Assembly: GCA_041396265.1 (NCBI GenBank)
Contig: JAWKYX010000009.1
Span: forward strand, 11,251 to 75,250
DNA from: Rhodocyclaceae bacterium
GTDB lineage: Bacteria; Pseudomonadota; Gammaproteobacteria; Burkholderiales; Rhodocyclaceae
DNA length: 64,000 nucleotides
Direction of reading: 5' to 3'
How positions within the stretch are numbered: position 1 is the first letter of the stretch; the number at the start of each line of letters is the position of its first letter. The notes beneath the pieces were generated by a model. It did not search any database. It saw only the letters and a program-made list of their open reading frames with translations, and was not told where the DNA came from. Shown here piece after piece: positions 46,633 to 57,833 of this stretch. A program made the position numbers and the translations under genes.

Positions 46633-46817
46633 CGATTCGCGTTCGCCGGGAGCGGGGCGAACAGGTCAGGACCGGGCCTGACGGATTTGTTGGTTCTTGT
46701 TGTGGATGAATCTTGCCGGCATCGGGGGGCGATGCAACGAAAGTACTATGGCACAAACATCCGTACAGGGCAGCGGATTTGTTGGTGTGAGCGATGTGCG
46801 GCCAGGGGGAGCGGCTG

Positions 46818-49232
46818 GTTTCAATCCACGCCCCTCGTTGCCGAGGGGCGAAGCCCGCGTCACCACGGCCCGAAAATCCCGCCGATGCGCGTTTCAATCC
46901 ACGCCCCTCGTTGCCGAGGGGCGAAGCGCCACATCGGATTGTGAAGGCCGTCGCGGTCAATGCGGTTTCAATCCACGCCCCTCGTTGCCGAGGGGCGAAG
47001 CCATCGGGGCGCTCAACCCCAACGAGATCCGCGAGTACGTTTCAATCCACGCCCCTCGTTGCCGAGGGGCGAAGCGCTCGTAGAGGATCTTGGGCCGGCC
47101 GTCGGGCAGGTTTCAATCCACGCCCCTCGTTGCCGAGGGGCGAAGCTTGCGGCGGCATTCGTGGCGGCGGTATGGCTCAAGTTTCAATCCACGCCCCTCG
47201 TTGCCGAGGGGCGAAGCCCTTGCAACCGCGCGCCATGAATTCATCGAGCGGTTTCAATCCACGCCCGTTGCCGAGGGGCGAAGACGCCGATCCGGTGCGA
47301 GGGCTGAATCCACCGGGCACGCAGTTTCATCCACGCCCTCGTTGCCGAGGGGCGAAGCTTCACGGGGCCGTCGAGAAGTTCAAACAGCCATTCGAGCGAA
47401 TTTCTTGAATCCACGCCCCGTTGCCGAGGGCGAAGCGAAATCATCCGCATGGCCCGGTCGTGGAGTTACGCGGTTTCAATCCATGCGCCCCTCGTTGCCG
47501 AGGGGCGAAGCCGCCATCGGTTCGGCGCAAGCCCATCACCGTCTCAGCTTCATCCACGCCCTCGTTGCCGAGGGGCGAAGCGAACACCAAAGGACCAGAC
47601 GGCCACGCCAAACCCATGTTTCATCCACGCCCCTCGTTGCCGAGGGGCGAAGCAGTCCGAGCACAAACAATGCATCGAGGCCGGTCAATACCATCCACGC
47701 CTTCGCCGAGGGGCGAAGCTGTTGATGGGCCGTGCGAGGATCGAAATGGCGTCGAGGCGTGTTTTCCAAATCCACGCCCTCGCTGCCGAGGGGCGAAGCA
47801 CAGCGGCACGCGAATCAGTGTGGCCGGGATGCTGTTGTTTCATCCACGCCCCTCGTTGCCGAGGGGCGAAGCTTGTTCAAGCCGAGGAAGTCTGGCGCTC
47901 GGTGAGTCAGTAAGTTTCATCCACGCCCTCGTTGCCGAGGGGCGAAGCGGCCATGTCGGTGAGCTTGCCGGGCTCTGGGGTGTTTTCATCCACGCCCCTC
48001 GCCGCCGAGGCGAAGCGACATCCCCCAGGTGCTCGGTTTCGATCAGCGTGTTTTCATCCACGCCCTCGCCGCGCCGAGGTGCCAGCTTTGACGGCGGTTA
48101 ACGCATTGTCGGTCGAGCGGAGTTTTCATCCTCTCACGCTCCCCGTTGCCGAGGGCGAAGCAAAGAAAGGCTATCCGGACTGACGCATCAACACCCGGTT
48201 TCAACCACGCCCTCGCTGCCGAGGGGCGAAGCGCCCAAATCATTGCCGCCACCATTACGACGCCAGCACGGGGAGGTTTCAACCACGCCTCGTTGCCGAG
48301 GGGCGAAGCCGCGCGGTCTGTCGGTGGCGCCGGCGAGGTTTGTAACGTTTCAATCCACACGCCCTCGTTGCTGAGGGGCGAAGCACACAGGATGGCGCGC
48401 TCGGTGGGCTCCGGAAGCCAGCTTCGATCCACGCCCCTCGTTGCCGAGGCGAAGCCAGCGCAAAAAGCCGCGCGCCGCCTAAGCCTGTCGAAGTTTCCAA
48501 TCCACGCCCTCGTTGCCGAGGGGCGAGCGACAGCGGCACGGCCGCGCTGCGCACGGCCGTGCCGGCAGGTTTCAATCCACGCCCCTCGCCGCCGAGGGCG
48601 AAGCAGCCTTGCCAAAACGCACTGCCCTGGATTCCAGTCGATAGCCACGTTTCAATCCACGCCCCTCGTTGCCGAGCGAAGCATCGAACTGGAGTCTGTA
48701 CTGATGGCGAATGAAATCGTTTTCTGAAGTCCACGCCCTCGGCTGCCGAGGGCGAAGCTCGCATGCCGGCAGGATGAATGGCTGGGTAATTAATCCACGC
48801 CTCGTTGCCGAGGGGCGAAGCCGGTGACCGGCCATAATTGCCGCCACCAACATAGCCATCCACGCCCCCGCTTGCCGAGGGCGAAGCTCAGCCCGGCTCG
48901 GTGCCAGCGCCGACGATACCAATCCACGCCCTCGTTGCCGAGGGGCTACGACGATCGTGGCGCGCCGCTCATCGACATCGAGTTTAACCACGCCCTCGTT
49001 GCCGAGGGGGCTAGGCCGGGATACTTGCCGCTGCTTAATGCTTGCCGAAAACGTAGTTTCAATCCACGCCTCGTTGCCGAGGGCGAGTTTCCCGCCATGC
49101 GGATATCTGCAGAACGGATATCCAGGTTTCATCCACGCCCCCCGTTGCCGAGGGGCGAAGCCTGGGTTACTTGCTTGTGGAGTCGATGACGGAACGTTTC
49201 AATCCACGCCCCTCGTTGCCGAGGGGCGAAGC
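46818..49232 (-). CRISPR. Type I-C CRISPR array, about 34 repeats (37 bp) and about 33 spacers
   Basis: Plus-strand consensus GTTTCAATCCACGCCCCTCGTTGCCGAGGGGCGAAGC at roughly 70-75 bp period; minus strand ends ATTGAAAC; the first six and the last copy match consensus, most internal copies carry indels. Confidence 0.97.
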
Positions 49233-49420: not shown

Positions 49421-49711
49421 CTACAAGACGAGCGGGCCTTCGAAGTCGGTGGCGCGGAAGGTGCCGTGCTCTCGCACTTCGGCGCCGCGGCTGTCGGGCA
49501 GCCGGTAGAGGCGCAGGTTGTCTTCGTCGAGTTCGATTTCGGAGAGCAATCGCTGTTCGAGGGCTTCGAGCTGCATCCGGTCGATCTGGAACTCGAAGAC
49601 AGATTTCTGGACCCGTTGGCCGACACCTTCGCAGACCTTGGCCACGCGGCGCAGGCGACGACGACCGGCACGGGTTTCGGTGTTGATGTCGTAGCAGGCG
49701 ATGACCAGCAT
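49421..49711 (-). CDS. cas2: CRISPR-associated Cas2
   Basis: YDI...[12 protein letters not shown]...[15 protein letters not shown]. Confidence 0.97.
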
Positions 49712-49714
49712 GGC

Positions 49715-50743
49715 TTACCTCGTGAGATAGGGCGGGTAGTCGTGGGTTTCTTCGCGCAGGGTGCGGGCGAGCAGCCGGGCCTGGACGAGGGGGATGAGGC
49801 CAAGGGCGACCGGCTGGGCCAGCAGGGTGTGGGTGATCTGCTCTTGTTTGCGCTCCTGCCAGGCGACCACGACGGTCTTGCGGGCATCGCCTTCGAGCAT
49901 GACGGCGCCGCCTTCGCGGTGCTCGAAATCGTCTGCATGGATCTGGCCCCGGTTGATGAGGGTGAGCGCGAGGCGGTCGGCGACATGACGGAACTCTTCC
50001 ATCAGGTCGAGAGCGAGGGCCGCGCGGCCGGGGCGCAGGGCGTGGAGAAAGCCGACTTGCGGGTCGAGCCCGGCTGCCTCCAGCGCGGAGCGGCAGTCGT
50101 TCATGAGCATGCTGTAGAGGAAGGAGAGCACGGCATTGAAGCGGTCGCGGGGCGGGCGGCGGCTGCGGCCGTTCATCAGGAAGGCGTCGCGCATGTCCTT
50201 GCGCAGCAGCAGGTTGAGCGCGCTGAAGTATTGCCGCGCGGCTTCGCCTTCGAGGCCGCGCAAGGTGTCGAGGTCGGCTGCTGTGGGCAGTGCGCGCAGG
50301 CTGGCGGCCAGGTCTTTGGCGGTGCGGGTGATCTGGCTGGCCTCGGCGGCATCCTTGGCTTCGCGTGCACCACGCAGTAGCACCTGGCGGCTGTTGCGGA
50401 TTTTGCCGGCCACGAAGTTGCGCGCCACGGCGAGCGCGAAGGCTGGGTCGCGGGCCTTGTCGAACTGGGCGGCGCGCAACAACACGTTGCCGGAAACCGG
50501 GCCTTCGAGCCGCGCCTTGAAGCGGCCGTTGCCGTCGAGCATGACGAGCGATATGCCTGCGTCGGCAACACGGTGAATGAGGGGCGTGGATAGCCGGATG
50601 TTGCCAAGGCAGACGATGGCGCCGAGGTGGTGCAGCGGTACGCGCAGGCGGGTGTCGTGTTCGACTTCGACCCGCAGGGTGTCGTTGTCCAGGTGCAGGT
50701 AGCTGTCCGGCGTGGTGACGTAGAGCGTGTTGAGCAGTTGCAT
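49715..50743 (-). CDS. cas1: CRISPR-associated Cas1 (I-C)
   Basis: LNTLYVTT, GNVLLR, LRGLEGEAA..YF, RRPPRD..NA.LSFLY, LDLMEEFR. Confidence 0.97.
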   Translation of the reverse strand: MQLLNTLYVTTPDSYLHLDNDTLRVEVEHDTRLRVPLHHLGAIVCLGNIRLSTPLIHRVADAGISLVMLDGNGRFKARLEGPVSGNVLLRAAQFDKARDPAFALAVARNFVAGKIRNSRQVLLRGAREAKDAAEASQITRTAKDLAASLRALPTAADLDTLRGLEGEAARQYFSALNLLLRKDMRDAFLMNGRSRRPPRDRFNAVLSFLYSMLMNDCRSALEAAGLDPQVGFLHALRPGRAALALDLMEEFRHVADRLALTLINRGQIHADDFEHREGGAVMLEGDARKTVVVAWQERKQEQITHTLLAQPVALGLIPLVQARLLARTLREETHDYPPYLTR

Positions 50744-50745
50744 GG

Positions 50746-51372
50746 TCAGGCATCCGGGTCGAACAGATGGGAAGGGGTGTCGGCCAGGCGCGTCAGGGCG
50801 TCGGGTTGGCACAGGTCGCGCAATGAGCAGGCGTGGCAGCGGTCGTCGTTGACCGGCGGCGGGGTGCGCCGGGCGGCGAGCATCTGCCGTATCTCGCGGG
50901 TGGCCGATTCGACGCGCTCGCGCAGGGCGGGGGTGATCGATACGACCCGGCGCCGCTTCGATGTGGCGTAGAACAGCGCGCCTTCCGGCACGGGTTTGCT
51001 GGTCATCTCTTCCAGGCACAGGGCCTGTGCGGCCAGTTGCAGGTCGTCGCAGGCGGCGACGGCGGCCTTCTTGTTGCGGCTGCCGTGTTTGTACTCGACA
51101 GGGTAGGCGGTGCCGTCGGGCAGGAATTCCACCACATCGGCCTTGCCGATCAACCCGAGGCGCTCGCTCCACACCGGCAGTGCCCGCTCGACGCGCAGGC
51201 CGGGGCGTAGTTCCACGCCGGGTTGATCGACACGCGCGTGCACGGCTTGACCGCGCTGGGTGTAGAGGTTGTCTTCGAACACCTGTTCCAGATGGATCAA
51301 GGCCCACTGGCGCGGGCAATAGGCCCAGTGCTGCAGGGCGGACAACGGGATGAAATCGTCGCCGTCAGTCAT
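50746..51372 (-). CDS. cas4: CRISPR-associated exonuclease Cas4
   Basis: LQHWAYCPRQWAL, GKADVVEF, PVEYK, QALCLEEM, CHACSLRDLC. Confidence 0.96.
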   Translation of the reverse strand: MTDGDDFIPLSALQHWAYCPRQWALIHLEQVFEDNLYTQRGQAVHARVDQPGVELRPGLRVERALPVWSERLGLIGKADVVEFLPDGTAYPVEYKHGSRNKKAAVAACDDLQLAAQALCLEEMTSKPVPEGALFYATSKRRRVVSITPALRERVESATREIRQMLAARRTPPPVNDDRCHACSLRDLCQPDALTRLADTPSHLFDPDA

Positions 51373-51387
51373 TGCGCTTGAAGCTTC

Positions 51388-51422
51388 TGATTGCGTTGCT
51401 ATCATTGATAGCGTTGTTATCA
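51388..51422. promoter_or_regulatory. FitA-type operator half-sites between divergent cas4 and antitoxin
   Basis: TGCTATCA-T-TGATAGCG palindrome (51397-51413) with related half-sites TGATTGCG (51388) and TGTTATCA (51415). Confidence 0.65.
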
Positions 51423-51434
51423 AAGGAGTGGGTC

Positions 51435-51683
51435 ATGGCTGACATGGTGCTGAGAAATCTGGACGACGATCTGAAGCAGCGGCTGCGCGAGCGCGCGGCC
51501 AGGCATGGCCGTTCGATGTCGGCCGAACTGCGCGCCATCGTGGCGGAGGCGCTGTCGCGCCCCGAGCCGGCAGACCCGGTCGAGGAGTTCAAACGCCTCG
51601 CGGCCAAGGTGCGAGCCTTAAGCGCCGGGCGGCCGCAAACGCCCTCCGAGGAATTGCTGCGCCAGAGCCGGGACGAGCGATGA
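51435..51683 (+). CDS. FitA/StbC-like ribbon-helix-helix antitoxin
   Basis: AAGGAG RBS; MADMVLRNLDDDLKQRLRERAARHGRSMSAELRAIV; ATGA overlap with toxin. Confidence 0.9.
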   Translation: MADMVLRNLDDDLKQRLRERAARHGRSMSAELRAIVAEALSRPEPADPVEEFKRLAAKVRALSAGRPQTPSEELLRQSRDER

Positions 51684-52105
51684 GGTGGGTGGTCGATGCC
51701 AGCGTCGCTGCCAAATGGTTTGCGCCAGAGCCCGACGCGGAGGCGGCACAACGGATATTGGGGTACGAACTGTATGCCCCGGATCTGCTGTTCGCCGAAG
51801 TGGCCAATATCTTGTGGAAGAAGCAGCGGCGCGGCGAGCTGGCGGACGAGGTGCCCGAGATCGCCGCCCGCATGTTGCTGGGCATCGGCGTGCATGCGAG
51901 CCCCTGCGCCGACCTGATGCCCGAGGCGAGCGCGCTGGCGGCTCGCCTCGACCACCCCGCCTACGACTGCTTCTATCTGGCGCTGGCGGTGCGCCATGGC
52001 ATCGCCATGGTGACGGCAGACCGGCGTCTGGTCGCCCGCTGCCAGCAGCCTGACGCCGCCGATCTGCAGCAGTTCGTCCGGCCGCTGGCAGCGTTCGAGC
52101 ATTAA
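51680..52105 (+). CDS. vapC: PIN-domain VapC-family toxin
   Basis: [39 protein letters not shown] acidic tetrad. Confidence 0.93.
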
Positions 52106-52989
52106 CCCACCCGGCGCTGCAGGCTGACGCCGGCCGGCAGGGCCGCGTCGTCGATGCTGACGGCGTAGTCGGCGAAACTGCGCGGTACTTCCGCCTCGGG
52201 CTTACGTGCGATGCGAATGCGATCGAACAGGTCGTGGGCATGCGCGTTGCCCAACTCGGAATCGTGCTTGAACACGTACAGCCCGCGGGTGGACATCTCA
52301 CCGCGTGCGGCCGAGCGATCATGCTCGAACATGTGCTCCAGCGACTGCCACAGCAGTTCGAGGTCGTCATCGCTGAAACCGGTCTGCCTGGCGAGGAAGG
52401 ATGAGACGAAGCCGTGAGCGACGTAGATGCCGTAGGGCACGGTGTGCTTGCGGCCCATGGTGCGGTTGTCGCCTTCCTGCTTTTCCGCCTCGGCCTCGGT
52501 GGCCACCGCCATGCGGGTGATGGAATGCTCCAGCGCCACGACAGGATCGACCGAGCGAGCGAAGGTCAGCTGCACCGGGCCGCGAACCTGGCCGCAGTTC
52601 ACGCCGGTGGACATCACGGCGCCGAACGTGCGCACGTCGAAGAAATTGGCGCACATCCAGTCGCGAGCCTTGCTCACCGTGTCGCCTTTGCCCTTGCGCT
52701 TCTTGTCTTCGCCTTTCAGTTCGTCCTCGGCACCCACCGACACATAAGCGCGTTCGTGCGTGCGGTTGAGCACGGCCTTTTCCTTCACGTAGATCTCGAA
52801 AGGCGGCTCTTCGCCTTTGACCAGTCCGACGAAGTTGCGGACCTTGCGCTTGAGGGATACGTCGGTGACCAGTCCGTGACCGGATTCGGCATCGAGGCGT
52901 GGCAGGTTGCCGGCGTCCGGGTCGCCATTGGGGTTGCCATCCTTCACATCAAAGACGAGGACGAAGTCGTAGCGGTTGGTGAGTGCCAT
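52102..52989 (-). CDS. cas7: Cas7 (Csd2) backbone, type I-C
   Basis: [45 protein letters not shown]. Confidence 0.97.
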
Positions 52990-54734
52990 CAGAGGGTCTC
53001 CTCAAGGGGTTCGGTGGATTCGGCAGGGGTGGATTTGGTGAAGAAGGCCTGGCGCTGGTGGTAGTAGCCGAGGGCGAAGCGGCCCTGATCGGCGAGCGCA
53101 AGGTGTTTCGGGAAGTCGGACAGGCCGTCCATGATTTCGCCGATCGTCTTTTCGAAATTGACGACTCGGCCTGTCGGCAGCTTCTTGAGATGGGCGTTCT
53201 TCAATCGCAGCAGGGTCGTGAATACGGCCACCGGCGTGCTGGAGGCGGCGCCGTAGTAGCGATCGCGGATTGTCGCGTTGAGCCCCGGGCTGGCGGCTTC
53301 CTGGATGCGTTCGAGCACGGCGAAGAGCCGGCCGAGGCGGTAGGCCGGGTTGGCTTGGGTCGGGTCGAGCATGGGGCGATACTCCTTCTCGGAAGTCGGA
53401 TGGCGGGAAGCGGTCTGGCGGATCTGGCGATTGAGGCAGGCCTTGATGGCGGCTGCGCGCAGGGTGTTCACGTGCTGTTCCGCACGGCAGCGCTGAACGG
53501 CTGCGTTGAGCCAAGTGGGCGGAAACGGTACGCCGTCGAGAATCGCGCGCATGATGTCGCCGCCCAGCCGGGGCGGAATGTTGTCGGCCTTGTGCTGTAC
53601 GGCAATGGCCGTGAGCAGGCGGAACAGGCTGGGGAACTCCGGGTCATTCGGTCCGCGCGTAATCGCCAGATCGTCGAACCAGGCGGTGATGCGCCGGGCG
53701 ATCTCGCCCAGCGGTGCCACATGCCAGAAGCGGATCGCGATGCGCGCGGCGTTGGGCGCCAGCCCGAGCACGAAGAAGCGTGTCTCGCCCCGCGTGCCAT
53801 CGAATTTGCCGCTGTGCACCGCTTCGTACAGGGCGCGAACCTCGCCCGTGCGGGCATCGGGGTCGTCACCCTCGCCGAACAGGGTGGCGAAGATGTCTTC
53901 GACCGTGTCGGCCTTCTCGGCCCAGAACACGGTCGAGGCGTCGCCGACCTGGATGCGTTGGCGGGAGCCCTTGGCGAGCAGGTGGTTGAGCGCCGTGGTG
54001 TAGGCGAAGGCGGCGGCGGGGCTGACAGGGGCGTTGGCGCCTTGCTCCTTGCCGAACGAGCGGAAGGCGTCGAGGTTGAAGGACACGATGTTCGCGCCCG
54101 ATGTTTGTGCTCCCCAAACGCCCTTGATGGCGTTGTGCAGCCGCTCGGCGTCGCTGCTGCGGCCAGTCACGAGGCAGATGCCGCTGGCGTCGATCGGTGC
54201 CGTTTCGTGGCTGATGCCGTCGACTACCTCGGGGCGTTGGCACACCAGATCGGTGTCCGGCGCAATGCGAAAGCTCATTAGTGGATTGGTTTCGAGCACC
54301 TCGGGCCAGGCCGGTTGCGAGGCGAGTTCAGCAACGGGGTTGCGGCCGAGAAACGCCAGCACGGCGCGGATGGCCGGATCGTCCTGGGCGGGCAGGGCCT
54401 CGATCCGCTCCCGGAAGGCCGCCCGCTGCTGAACAATGCGCTCGGGCTTGCCCTTGGTGTCGATGCCGACGACGTACTCGGCGGTGTCCCACAGCAGATT
54501 GGCGGCGACGCCCGATGTCTTCTTCACGCCTTGCGGTACGAGAAAACGCGCTGCCACCTTTGTCTTGCCTTCGAGTTGCCGCGTGTCCTTCAGGCCGAGC
54601 AAGGCGCCATCGGCGTCGAGTTCGATGATGAACGGGATCTCCTTGTCCTCGAAGCCATAGGCCGGCAGCCGGCGGGCGGGGTCGGGATTGCGCTGCTTGC
54701 GTTGGTAGTAGTCATGCAATGCCTGAAGAATCAT
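52989..54734 (-). CDS. cas8c: Cas8c (Csd1) large subunit
   Basis: [54 protein letters not shown]. Confidence 0.96.
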
Positions 54735-55390
54735 CCCCGCACCTCGATGCCGTTGAGGTCGAGCACGCCGTGCTTGATGTTTGCGCGGAAGAAGGTCGGG
54801 CGCGGATCGGCGGGGTTGGAAAAGTCCATGTCGTGGAGCATCCAGCCCAGGTCGCCGTCGACCTCCGCGACCGGTGGCGGGCCAGCCTCGTCCGCGTCGA
54901 TCAGGCGGAATCGGGCGGCGAATTCGCGGCAGCCGAGATAGGGCTGATTGACGCATTGCCCCTTGGAGGCGCGGCGGCGAAACATCTCGGCGTACTTGGC
55001 AGCGGTGTCCTTGGGCGCGCGATCGGGCAGGAATTCCAGCTCCGCATGCAGCCGGTAGGCCACGTCACGCAGGATCAGGCCGGCGCGCTGTTGGCGCTCA
55101 TCCTCCACGTAGAGCGCCAGTTGCCCGCGCCCGGTGTTCATGGCCGTGGTGACGTTACGCGTCGAAATCACAGCGCCGACTTCGTTGCGTCGCACGCTGG
55201 TCCAGCGTACCGGCTTGAGCACTTCGATGCGTCGCACATGCCAGCGGATCGCTGGCTTCCACAGGATGCTCTCGAACACGGCGCGGGCAGCCGACGGCGT
55301 GATGAGGTCGTAGGAGACACGCTCGACTTTCATCTCCGGGCGCGTGAAGCAGGCGAAGTCGCCACCGACTTCGAGGCAGAATCGATTCAT
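54731..55390 (-). CDS. cas5: Cas5c (Cas5d) pre-crRNA processing subunit
   Basis: GDFACFTRPEMKVERVSYD..TPSAAR, QPYLGCREF. Confidence 0.97.
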   Translation of the reverse strand: MNRFCLEVGGDFACFTRPEMKVERVSYDLITPSAARAVFESILWKPAIRWHVRRIEVLKPVRWTSVRRNEVGAVISTRNVTTAMNTGRGQLALYVEDERQQRAGLILRDVAYRLHAELEFLPDRAPKDTAAKYAEMFRRRASKGQCVNQPYLGCREFAARFRLIDADEAGPPPVAEVDGDLGWMLHDMDFSNPADPRPTFFRANIKHGVLDLNGIEVRG

Positions 55391-55416
55391 GGTTTCATTC
55401 CTTGTCTCTCCCGAAT

Positions 55417-57833
55417 TCAAAACACCAGTGCTGCCGGATCGCCCGGCGCCCCTGCCGCATTCGCGCCGAGCACGTCGTCGTAGAACACATCCGAAGCCTG
55501 CACATACAGACCGGGGCATCCGCCGAGTTCCCGGATGTCGCCGCCTGCCAGCAGGCGCTGGATGTCGCGTTGGTACAAGGTGACGCCGTAGCGCTGCAGC
55601 TTGCGCAGCAGGCCGCGGTTCGGCCCGTCGCGCTCGATCTTGCCGACGATGGCGTCGACGTTTTCCGCTGCGTCCGGTCGCCGGTAGTTCACGATCACCG
55701 TGCCGCCGTCGTCGTTGTCGATCAGGCGGAAGGCCTCGGCGGCGTCACGAAAGCGCACCGCGCCGTGGTCGACGCGCAGCATGTCGCAGATGCCGCGGCG
55801 ATCAAGTTGGGCGTCGGCATACAGCTGGCGGAAAAATCGATCGAACAGCGCCAGGCCGAGCGGGTCATCGTTTGTTGTGCTTTGCCAAAGGGTCTTGCAG
55901 GTGTCGCGCGCCTGCCGCAGCAGACCGGGTGGCGCGGCTCGGAGGGCGGCACGAACACGTGCACCTCGCCGCCATCGGCCAGTCGTCCTTCGCGGTTGCA
56001 GCGCCCTGCGGCCTGGGCAATCGAGTCCAGCCCCGCCATGGCACGAAAGACCACGGGGAAGTCGAGATCGACGCCGGCTTCGACCAGTTGGGTGCTGATC
56101 ACGCGCACCGGTGGGGCTGCATCGCCGCGTGCAATCGCCGCGCGGCGTGAGGAGAGAGCGTCCTTGATGCGGGCGATGGTGTCGCTACGGTGCTGCGGGC
56201 ACATCAAGGCCGAGAGGTGGTAGAGGCCGTCGGGTGCGCGGGCCTTGAGCAAGGCGTGCAGGTCGCGCGCATCCTGGCGGTGGTTGACGATGGCGAGCGC
56301 GGCGGGCTGTGCGGCGATCCGGTCGGCGATGGCCGGCCAGTCTTCGCGCAGGTTGAGATCGGTCGGGCGGTGTATCCGGACGCGGCGCAACGCGTCATAG
56401 AGGGCGGGCACGTCGTCGATGATTTCGGTCACCGTGTCTGGGTCGAAGCCGCGCAGGTTCTTGCGCGCGTCAAAGCCTTGTGCGTGGGTCAGCGCCGGCT
56501 GGGTGGCGGTGCACAGCACGAGCGTGACGCCATAGCCCTCCACCAGCAGACGCAGCACGTCGAGCATGGGCTGCAGGAAGTCCACGGGCAGCAGTTGCGC
56601 TTCGTCGAGCACGATGACGCTGCCGACCAGGTTGTGCAGCTTGCGGCAGCGCGAGGTGCGCCGCGCGAACAGGCTTTCGAAGAGTTGGACGTTGGTGGTG
56701 ACGATGACGGGGGCGTCCCAGTTTTCGCAGGCGAGGCGGGAGCGGGCGGTTTCCTGGCGATCGTCGAGTTCGGCGTTGCTGTGGTGTTCGACGACGTTCT
56801 CGTCACCGAGCACGGCGCGGAAGATGTCGGCCGTCTGCTCGATGATGGAGGTGTAGGGAATGGCGTAGATGATCCGGCGCTTTTCATGCTCGGCGGCATG
56901 CCGCAGCGCGAAGCCGAGGCTGGCGAAGGTTTTGCCGCCACCGGTGGGGACGGTCAGCGTGAACACGCCGGACGGGCGAATCGCCTTCTCGCGGCACTGG
57001 CGCAGGACGCTGGCACGCAGGCGATTGACCGGTGTGCCGGCCGCGGCCGCGGTGAGGGTCGCCATGTAGGTGTCAAAGCGTTCCTTCAGGGTGGTGAGTG
57101 CTGCAAAGCCGTTGCGACGTGCGGCCTGGTCGCCATCCATGAAGGCTTCGGTGTCGAGGAAGTCGGCATCGACGAGGCACGAGAACTGCATGCGCAGCCA
57201 CAGTGCGAAGCTGCCGGGGGTGCCTGTTTTGTGGTCGGTGGGTAGATTTACCAGCGAGGGCAATGGCAGGTCGGGGTCCAGCAGCGTGGCAGGCGGTGCC
57301 GCCAGGCGCGTGTCGTGAAGTTCTCGCTGCGCGTCCTCCCCAGCCAGACGCTCGTTGAGGCCCTGGTGCCAGTTGTCGAGCCCGGCGTGGTGGCCGGCGA
57401 TCAGGTAGCTCAGGACATGGGCGACGAATTGTCCGTGCGGTCCGTGGGTCTGTGTCAGATAGTCGCGCGCATGCAAGGCACCAGCGGCCGAATGGGTCTT
57501 GTCCTTGCCGGCGACACGGCCTTCGATGTGGGCGTCGGCATCGTGTGATTGCCGAATGTAGCGTTGAAACCCGCGACGGTACTTGCCCAGGTCATGCCAG
57601 AGGCCTGCAAATGCCAGCCAGTCTGCGGCCATGAATGGATGGCCGAATGCGCTGGCCAGCGTCGACACACTGGTCAGATGGTCGTCGAGTGCGTGGCCGC
57701 TCGTGGTGCCGTCCGAAGCGATGCGCAGGTGGGCCAGGGGGATGTCGATCATGGTCGGCTTGTCGTTCGAGGGATGCGCTGCATTGTCCGCGCCATGAGG
57801 CTCACCGAGTGAGCCCGTCGATTTGTCAGCCAT
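55417..57833 (-). CDS. cas3: Cas3 HD nuclease-helicase, single frameshift near 55935
   Basis: WHDLGK, CLVDADFLDT, PTGGGKT, DEAQ, QAAGRCNREG; C-terminus (PPGLLRQA...FRLID...RKLQRYGV) continues in a shifted frame; alternative start 57752. Confidence 0.93.

Follow-up and report, generated by a model that had tools for sequence, protein, structure and literature searches.

A predicted toxin-antitoxin operator next to cas4 in a type I-C cas operon of a Rhodocyclaceae bacterium

How bacteria keep spacer acquisition low but still inducible is not settled. In a widespread type I-C clade, a toxin-antitoxin (TA) cassette that is predicted to repress itself splits the adaptation genes from the interference genes, and the locus described here raises the question of whether the operator of this cassette serves its own genes only or also acts on cas4-cas1-cas2. 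Should operator occupancy alter the expression of cas4-cas1-cas2, a protein TA switch would for the first time be linked to CRISPR adaptation. If it has no effect, the palindrome is an ordinary TA operator that happens to adjoin cas4.

The cassette, the gap and the palindrome

The window (the whole stretch of 64,000 nucleotides that was analysed) comes from a metagenome-assembled genome (MAG) of Rhodocyclaceae, genus Denitromonas, and its cas locus shares 97% identity with the D. iodatirespirans IR-12 locus. The same arrangement is found in two cultured isolates, Denitromonas iodatirespirans IR-12 and Methyloversatilis thermotolerans 3t. The TA cassette lies antisense between cas7 and cas4 of the type I-C operon, as can be seen from the following genes.

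55725-57833, minus strand: cas3 (Pfam match)
54734-55519, minus strand: cas5d (Pfam match)
52992-54956, minus strand: cas8c/csd1 (Pfam match)
52102-52989, minus strand: cas7, the last interference gene, convergent with the toxin gene (PF05107, 362 bits)
51680-52105, plus strand: PIN-domain (VapC-type) toxin, 141 aa (PF01850, 55 bits)
51435-51683, plus strand: FitA-like ribbon-helix-helix (RHH) antitoxin, 82 aa (PF22513, 57.4 bits with a cut-off of 27; Arc, 30 bits)
50746-51372, minus strand: cas4, 208 aa (Pfam match)
49715-50743, minus strand: cas1 (identified by translation, and by tblastn in relatives)
49421-49711, minus strand: cas2 (PF09827, 73.9 bits)

At the distal end of the cassette, the toxin stop codon and the cas7 stop codon share the tetranucleotide TTAA. 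At the proximal end, a gap of 62 bp (51373-51434) separates the antitoxin ATG (51435, plus strand) from the cas4 ATG (51372-51370, minus strand); its GC content is 0.45, compared to 0.666 across the window. The AT-rich gap between divergent cas4 and antitoxin genes that a sequence-only reading of this DNA had described is thus real. The gap contains four 8-bp boxes that follow each other with a 9-bp period and together extend over 51388-51422.

51388-51395: box 1, TGATTGCG, a degenerate half-site
51397-51404: box 2, TGCTATCA, the left half of the core
51406-51413: box 3, TGATAGCG, the right half of the core
51415-51422: box 4 (auxiliary), TGTTATCA, downstream of the predicted transcription start
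51397-51413: core operator, made up of boxes 2 and 3 (TGCTATCA and TGATAGCG)

The two core boxes contain a perfect inverted repeat, GCTATCA-T-TGATAGC, at 51398-51412, with arms of 7 nt and a spacer of 1 nt, so that the palindrome with a central T noted earlier is confirmed. The whole array can also be read as an 18-bp direct repeat across 51388-51422, the copies of which are 88% alike. The boxes had been placed about 15-50 bp upstream of the cas4 ATG; the measured distance is 16-50 bp, and the operator at 51397-51422 is 26-50 bp away. When the window was shuffled 100 times with its dinucleotides preserved, the palindrome pattern, with at most one mismatch allowed, gave 0 matches. Within the 3.33-Mb assembly, the 15-mer (at most one mismatch) is present in a single copy, as is its 10-base core, TATCANTGATA. 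A search for a regulon, i.e., for further operator copies across the same 3.33 Mb, retrieved none, and the genome contains one FitA-like gene.

A predicted promoter within the palindrome and the comparison with FitAB

The region between 51000 and 52400 was scanned for promoters. The only σ70-like site in this region (0.0 expected) is on the plus strand and is directed toward the antitoxin gene.

51378-51405, plus strand: predicted antitoxin promoter, with the -35 element TTGAAG at 51378-51383, a 16-nt spacer and the TG-extended -10 element TATCAT at 51400-51405
51423-51428, plus strand: Shine-Dalgarno sequence of the antitoxin gene, AAGGAG, conserved in relatives

The -10 element is located inside the left arm of the palindrome: box TGCTATCA together with the central T forms the extended -10 (TGcTATCAT), and the predicted transcription start falls within the right arm. 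Since the box doubles as the -10 element, bound antitoxin or TA complex would be expected to silence the TA pair. An equivalent promoter, with 10 of 12 matches in each case, was predicted in two relatives (L004 and L020).

Type II TA pairs are known to control themselves through a palindrome over their promoter, to which the antitoxin or the complex binds (PMC3920265). The palindrome of the window likewise covers the -10 element and the start of the pair's own promoter, its register is kept across orthologues regardless of context, and the two genes share 4 nt, the antitoxin gene being the first of the pair. Unlike in the generic case, the neighbour is unusual, with the cas4 start 26 bp off; the operator itself is ordinary. 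By its features, then, the palindrome is a predicted autoregulatory operator of an RHH-antitoxin/PIN-toxin cassette (VapBC-type, FitA-family), and antitoxin or TA complex bound to it would, as in other members of this family, turn its own transcription off.

Comparison of relatives is consistent with this assignment. The distance between the core TATCA-N-TGATA and the antitoxin ATG is constant in the 12 loci of the family survey that lie within cas operons, and also in the cas-embedded loci of the genome collection in which the flank is visible (L071-L086), L087 having just a degenerate half. The core is also kept outside cas loci (L007/L076) and is degenerate in L083 (Ideonella), L084 (Rubrivivax) and L122. 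Since its register is constant both inside and outside cas loci, the operator appears to belong to the cassette and to travel with it. The spacer between the -35 and -10 elements and the cas4-proximal bases diverge among relatives.

The two degenerate half-sites that had been proposed to accompany the palindrome fared differently. Box 4 is TGATATCA, TGACATCA or TGCTATCA in close relatives, is degenerate in L014 and is not conserved in distant ones. Box 1 is not conserved even in loci of the same genus (L004-L006) and is probably without function.

The half-sites invite comparison with FitAB of Neisseria gonorrhoeae, the IR36 operator of which is reportedly TGCTATCA-N12-TGATAGCA (Wilbur 2005; Mattison 2006). 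The system and its operator have been reviewed (PMC3920265), structures are available (PDB 2H1O and 2BSQ), and the FitA operator is known to consist of 8-nt halves with six positions contacted (PMC6118392). We searched 400 genomes of the order with a 38-aa FitA fragment and found a full-length FitA orthologue (L124, E 2e-22 to PDB 2BSQ_E) that carries TGCTATCA-N11-TGATAGCA at 1432-1458, ending 36 nt before its ATG. The claim that the half-site of the window is that of FitAB is therefore supported by the sequence upstream of a true FitA orthologue. The N1 arrangement of half-sites seen in the window is also present upstream of two further FitA-like genes (L129 and L130).

The likeness extends to the proteins. 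Both cassettes combine a PF22513 RHH antitoxin with a PIN toxin, the DNA-reading strand is MVLRNL in our antitoxin and VVIRNL in FitA (xV[IL]RNL in both), and here too an 8-bp half-site, TGCTATCA/TGATAGC(A), forms an operator over the promoter. There are also clear differences. FitAB half-sites are about two helical turns apart (N11-N12), each occupied by a single FitA dimer, with the toxin as the bridge, whereas the spacer here is 1 nt, i.e., 9 bp from centre to centre, compared to N11 in L124; given this spacing, the tetramer-of-heterodimers geometry of FitAB cannot apply. The match of the antitoxin to FitA is only at E 0.007 and requires a profile (2H1O_E, residues 2-39), and the best solved match of the antitoxin is Mnt (E 7.9e-5 in PDB). 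The nearest solved chain of the toxin is PAE0151 (E 9.7e-13), with FitB not retrieved at E <=0.01, and the genomic setting here is a cas operon. The earlier designation of a FitA-type operator thus stands as regards the PF22513 antitoxin, the shared RNL strand and the half-sites; the spacing of the arms, which is N1 and not N11-N12, differs from FitAB, as the sequence-only reading had itself remarked. We suggest that the cassette works like FitAB and is not a strict member of the FitAB system.

The partner of the antitoxin varies. Three loci of the same genus (L004, L005 and L006) have the same antitoxin N-terminus and operator and a PIN partner that is only 42% identical, and their antitoxins diverge mainly in the C-terminal, toxin-binding half. 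By this comparison, the cassette appears to be a mosaic.

TA cassettes at the cas7-cas4 seam

The gap between cas7 and cas4 was measured in 61 Rhodocyclaceae type I-C loci, and its contents were identified by tblastn and Pfam. A TA pair from one of five families, in either orientation, is present in 44 of the 61 loci, and a gene for a YhcG nuclease in one more. In the following list, a locus that has two pairs, one behind the other, appears in the row of each family, so that the rows exceed 44 distinct loci.

FitA/PIN: 12 loci, antisense to cas
ParE/PF09720: 11 loci, antisense to cas
HicB-like/HicA: 7 loci, same strand as cas
Gp49/HI1420: 6 loci, same strand as cas
DUF433/DUF5615: 9 loci, same strand as cas
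YhcG nuclease gene: 1 locus, same strand as cas
Unclassified insert of 416 bp (L023): 1 locus, antisense ORF
Short unclassified gaps of 111 and 239 bp (L016 and L062): 2 loci
Canonical gap shorter than 60 bp: 13 loci

In L021/L081, L033, L037 and L022, a single gap holds a stack of two TA pairs, each from another family, e.g., HicB-like/HicA followed by antisense FitA/PIN. On the tree of Cas7, the TA type changes at least 20 times. Cas7 is of two types with a mutual identity of about 35%, and yet the Cas4 proteins to which they are joined are similar: in L009, L017, L022, L027, L029, L032, L036-L038, L044 and L046, Cas7 is about 35% and Cas4 66-80% identical to that of the window. The combination of divergent Cas7 with similar Cas4 suggests that interference and adaptation modules recombine at the seam occupied by the TA cassette.

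Frequent turnover of cassettes at the seam would also suit a palindrome that is a recombination site at the cassette boundary, or an RNA hairpin or terminator, rather than a protein operator. The palindrome is indeed flagged as terminator-like on the plus strand, and a cas4-strand leader would fold at -14.5 kcal/mol (z -2.07). However, the same class of motif precedes FitA-like genes in unrelated contexts, and other TA families occupy the seam without the palindrome. A terminator can be rejected, as the palindrome lies upstream of the plus-strand genes and not after them, and the minus (cas) strand has no T-run. We consider explanations of this kind very improbable.

The closeness of the operator to cas4 has a simple geometric explanation. 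Any antisense cassette turns its promoter toward cas4, and the operator is found beside cas4 since the cassette sits antisense. Accordingly, ParE-type antisense cassettes are located 39-76 bp from the cas4 ATG (eight of them at 50-76 bp) and have a different motif there. In four of these (L024, L027, L028 and L030) the cas4-side motif is TTGGCAA followed, after about 15 nt, by ATTGCCCAA, which is probably the ParE-type operator.

TA genes within cas loci have been described before. Pairs of vapBC genes are interspersed in archaeal cas cassettes (Garrett et al. 2015, PMC4390879; Vestergaard 2014, PMC3973734), and these are also protein TA pairs, including PIN toxins, between cas modules, for which a role in keeping the locus was proposed. 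Unlike those, the pairs described here belong to bacterial type I-C loci and alternate among five families at one fixed seam, cas7|cas4; a regulatory link to adaptation was not proposed in the archaeal studies. CreTA and CreR also involve a TA element that lies inside a cas operon and is coupled to CRISPR-Cas (PMC12737573, PMC10097628). However, CreTA is an RNA pair that is repressed by Cascade through a repeat-like guide, whereas both parts of the cassette studied here are proteins with Pfam matches. A search for the CRISPR repeat (at most three mismatches) returned the array copies only, and the insert holds no sequence similar to the repeat. A 2025 review of TA-CRISPR coupling covers only CreTA, CreR and CrePA (PMC12737573), and our literature search found no protein-antitoxin operator controlling adaptation genes, in agreement with the earlier statement that no circuit of this kind had been described.

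One copy of the cassette now stands apart from a complete I-C locus. In a groundwater MAG of Rhodocyclales (L073, 2501-3171), a 95%-identical antitoxin/PIN cassette with its operator has an RND efflux gene for a neighbour; the CRISPR array beside it is a different one, and cas7 and cas1 are reduced to scraps. This cassette appears to have outlived its I-C locus.

Possible reach of the operator to cas4-cas1-cas2

The sequence-only reading had gone further and proposed that the operator also co-represses cas4-cas1-cas2, either at a divergent promoter or as a roadblock, so that loss of antitoxin under stress would both free the PIN toxin and start acquisition. The coordinates bear out the position of the operator relative to cas4 on which this proposal was based. 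An independent promoter would not fit between an operator 26-50 bp from the cas4 ATG and the gene, and, wherever transcription may begin, the operator stands, by geometry, between that point and the cas4 start codon. There is also a precedent. Arc and Mnt of the immI region of phage P22 are RHH repressors whose operators lie within overlapping, oppositely directed promoters. The antitoxin is likewise an RHH protein, with Mnt as its best solved match; unlike at immI, where both promoters are mapped, one promoter is predicted here.

The shared divergent promoter pair was not seen. Scans for a σ70-like promoter on the cas4 strand found none in the gap or in the cassette, either in the window or in L004, L020 and L019; these were consensus scans, which are weak in a betaproteobacterium of 67% GC, and a non-canonical cas4 promoter could exist. 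The central base of the palindrome gives TATCAT on the antitoxin strand and TATCAA on the cas4 strand, a difference that also speaks against a second promoter within the palindrome. Terminators were not predicted either, neither inside the cassette of the three relatives nor, in the window, on the cas strand.

The palindrome also bears on where cas4 begins. Its centre is an ATG on the cas4 strand (51405-51403), in frame with cas4 and joined to it without a stop codon, 33 nt upstream of the usual start. The frame from this ATG into cas4 is open in most loci, and in most loci the cas4 start is located seven codons before an IPLSALQH motif. In L078, L081 and L070, which belong to one genus (L070 was read by eye), the usual cas4 start is missing, and the ATG at the palindrome centre is the only start codon, so that every cas4 transcript of this genus would have to cross the operator; this could mean a tighter, selected link between operator and cas4. 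L079, in which a stop codon separates the central ATG from the usual GTG start, is a counterexample, and the central ATG was rejected as a general start of cas4.

The genes downstream are maintained. For loci bearing FitA/PIN, dN/dS was 0.09-0.24 for cas4 and 0.05-0.20 for cas1 (with dS above 1), and the genes are intact; the antitoxin gave 0.04-0.26. Since cas4 and cas1 are under purifying selection, they are presumably still expressed. Taken together with the lack of a predicted cas4-strand promoter or terminator and with the start codon of L078, L081 and L070, this suggests that cas4 transcripts either start on the operator or cross it.

One can expect that cas4-cas1-cas2 mRNA is most likely produced by read-through of the cas3-cas5-cas8c-cas7 transcript, which would traverse first the cassette, in antisense, and then the operator. 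Read-through is favoured because the 62-bp gap has neither room for a separate cas4 promoter nor any sign of one, and no terminator is predicted in the cassette. A bound repressor, or the opposing promoter once derepressed, could damp this read-through; such damping would be a by-product, and we see no sign of an evolved gate here.

Transcript data, in the form of assembled contigs, do not discriminate between modes of cas4 transcription. In two RNA libraries of "organism A", with library contigs of up to 44-56 kb, a single contig of ca. 10.8 kb each spans the whole locus at flat depth, for which DNA carry-over or pervasive cover is possible and in which strand and ends cannot be read. In a wastewater metatranscriptome, exact-match contigs are found only on cas1 (50082-50355) and cas7 (52187-52938), as separate pieces. 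This separate coverage, together with the clear maintenance of the adaptation genes, would fit with cas4-cas1-cas2 having a cas-strand promoter of their own within the antitoxin or toxin coding sequence and with the operator and the TA state being without measurable effect. However, a cas-strand σ70-like site is absent from the cassette in the window and in three relatives, and RNA polymerase that starts there would in any case meet the operator on its way to cas4. We regard such an internal promoter as unlikely.

A similarly low probability is assigned to the co-repression of cas4-cas1-cas2. In families inserted on the same strand, the last TA gene overlaps or abuts the cas4 start (in L008 it overlaps), and cas4 would thus necessarily be co-transcribed with an autoregulated pair, which speaks for control. 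On the other hand, any cassette inserted antisense ends up next to cas4, as the ParE-type cassettes also do, and the sign of the effect is uncertain, since derepression would also fire a strong promoter that transcribes head-on into cas4 read-through and yields antisense RNA. Operator control of cas4-cas1-cas2 is a fair hypothesis, the grounds for which are only positional.

The same reasoning can be extended to the whole slot. It would then be a regulatory seam at which the autorepressed promoter of each occupant stands either in line with cas4 (HicAB-like, Gp49/HI1420 and DUF433/DUF5615) or back-to-back over its start (FitA/PIN and ParE), and the TA state would gate the acquisition genes. 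Antitoxin level, stress and phage attack would be the inputs, and the operator at 51397-51422 would be the gate of FitA/PIN cassettes. This generalization, too, seems doubtful to us.

Two loci are of interest in this respect. L081 (the same locus as L021, Ca. Methylophosphatis) and L085 have stop codons in the PIN frame, and the antitoxin and operator are intact beside cas4. An intact antitoxin next to a broken toxin fits a regulatory role and is also the expected order of decay; the two loci could thus be either orphan repressors or the expected first step of TA decay.

We therefore return to the cassette's own operator, brought next to cas4 by antisense insertion, with cas4-cas1-cas2 expressed by read-through and any damping a by-product. 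We hold this account, as a whole, to be probable, with appreciable room for error. The description of the palindrome as an ordinary TA operator in an unusual location, judged from sequence, is well supported.

A further feature of the locus was observed downstream of the adaptation genes. The CRISPR array is in two parts: six repeats of 37 nt occupy 46818-47217, and a lone identical repeat is located at 49196-49232, just past cas2, the two parts being separated by 1978 bp of non-repeat DNA. A DNA contig from the metagenome that is the probable source joins position 46817 directly to 49196.
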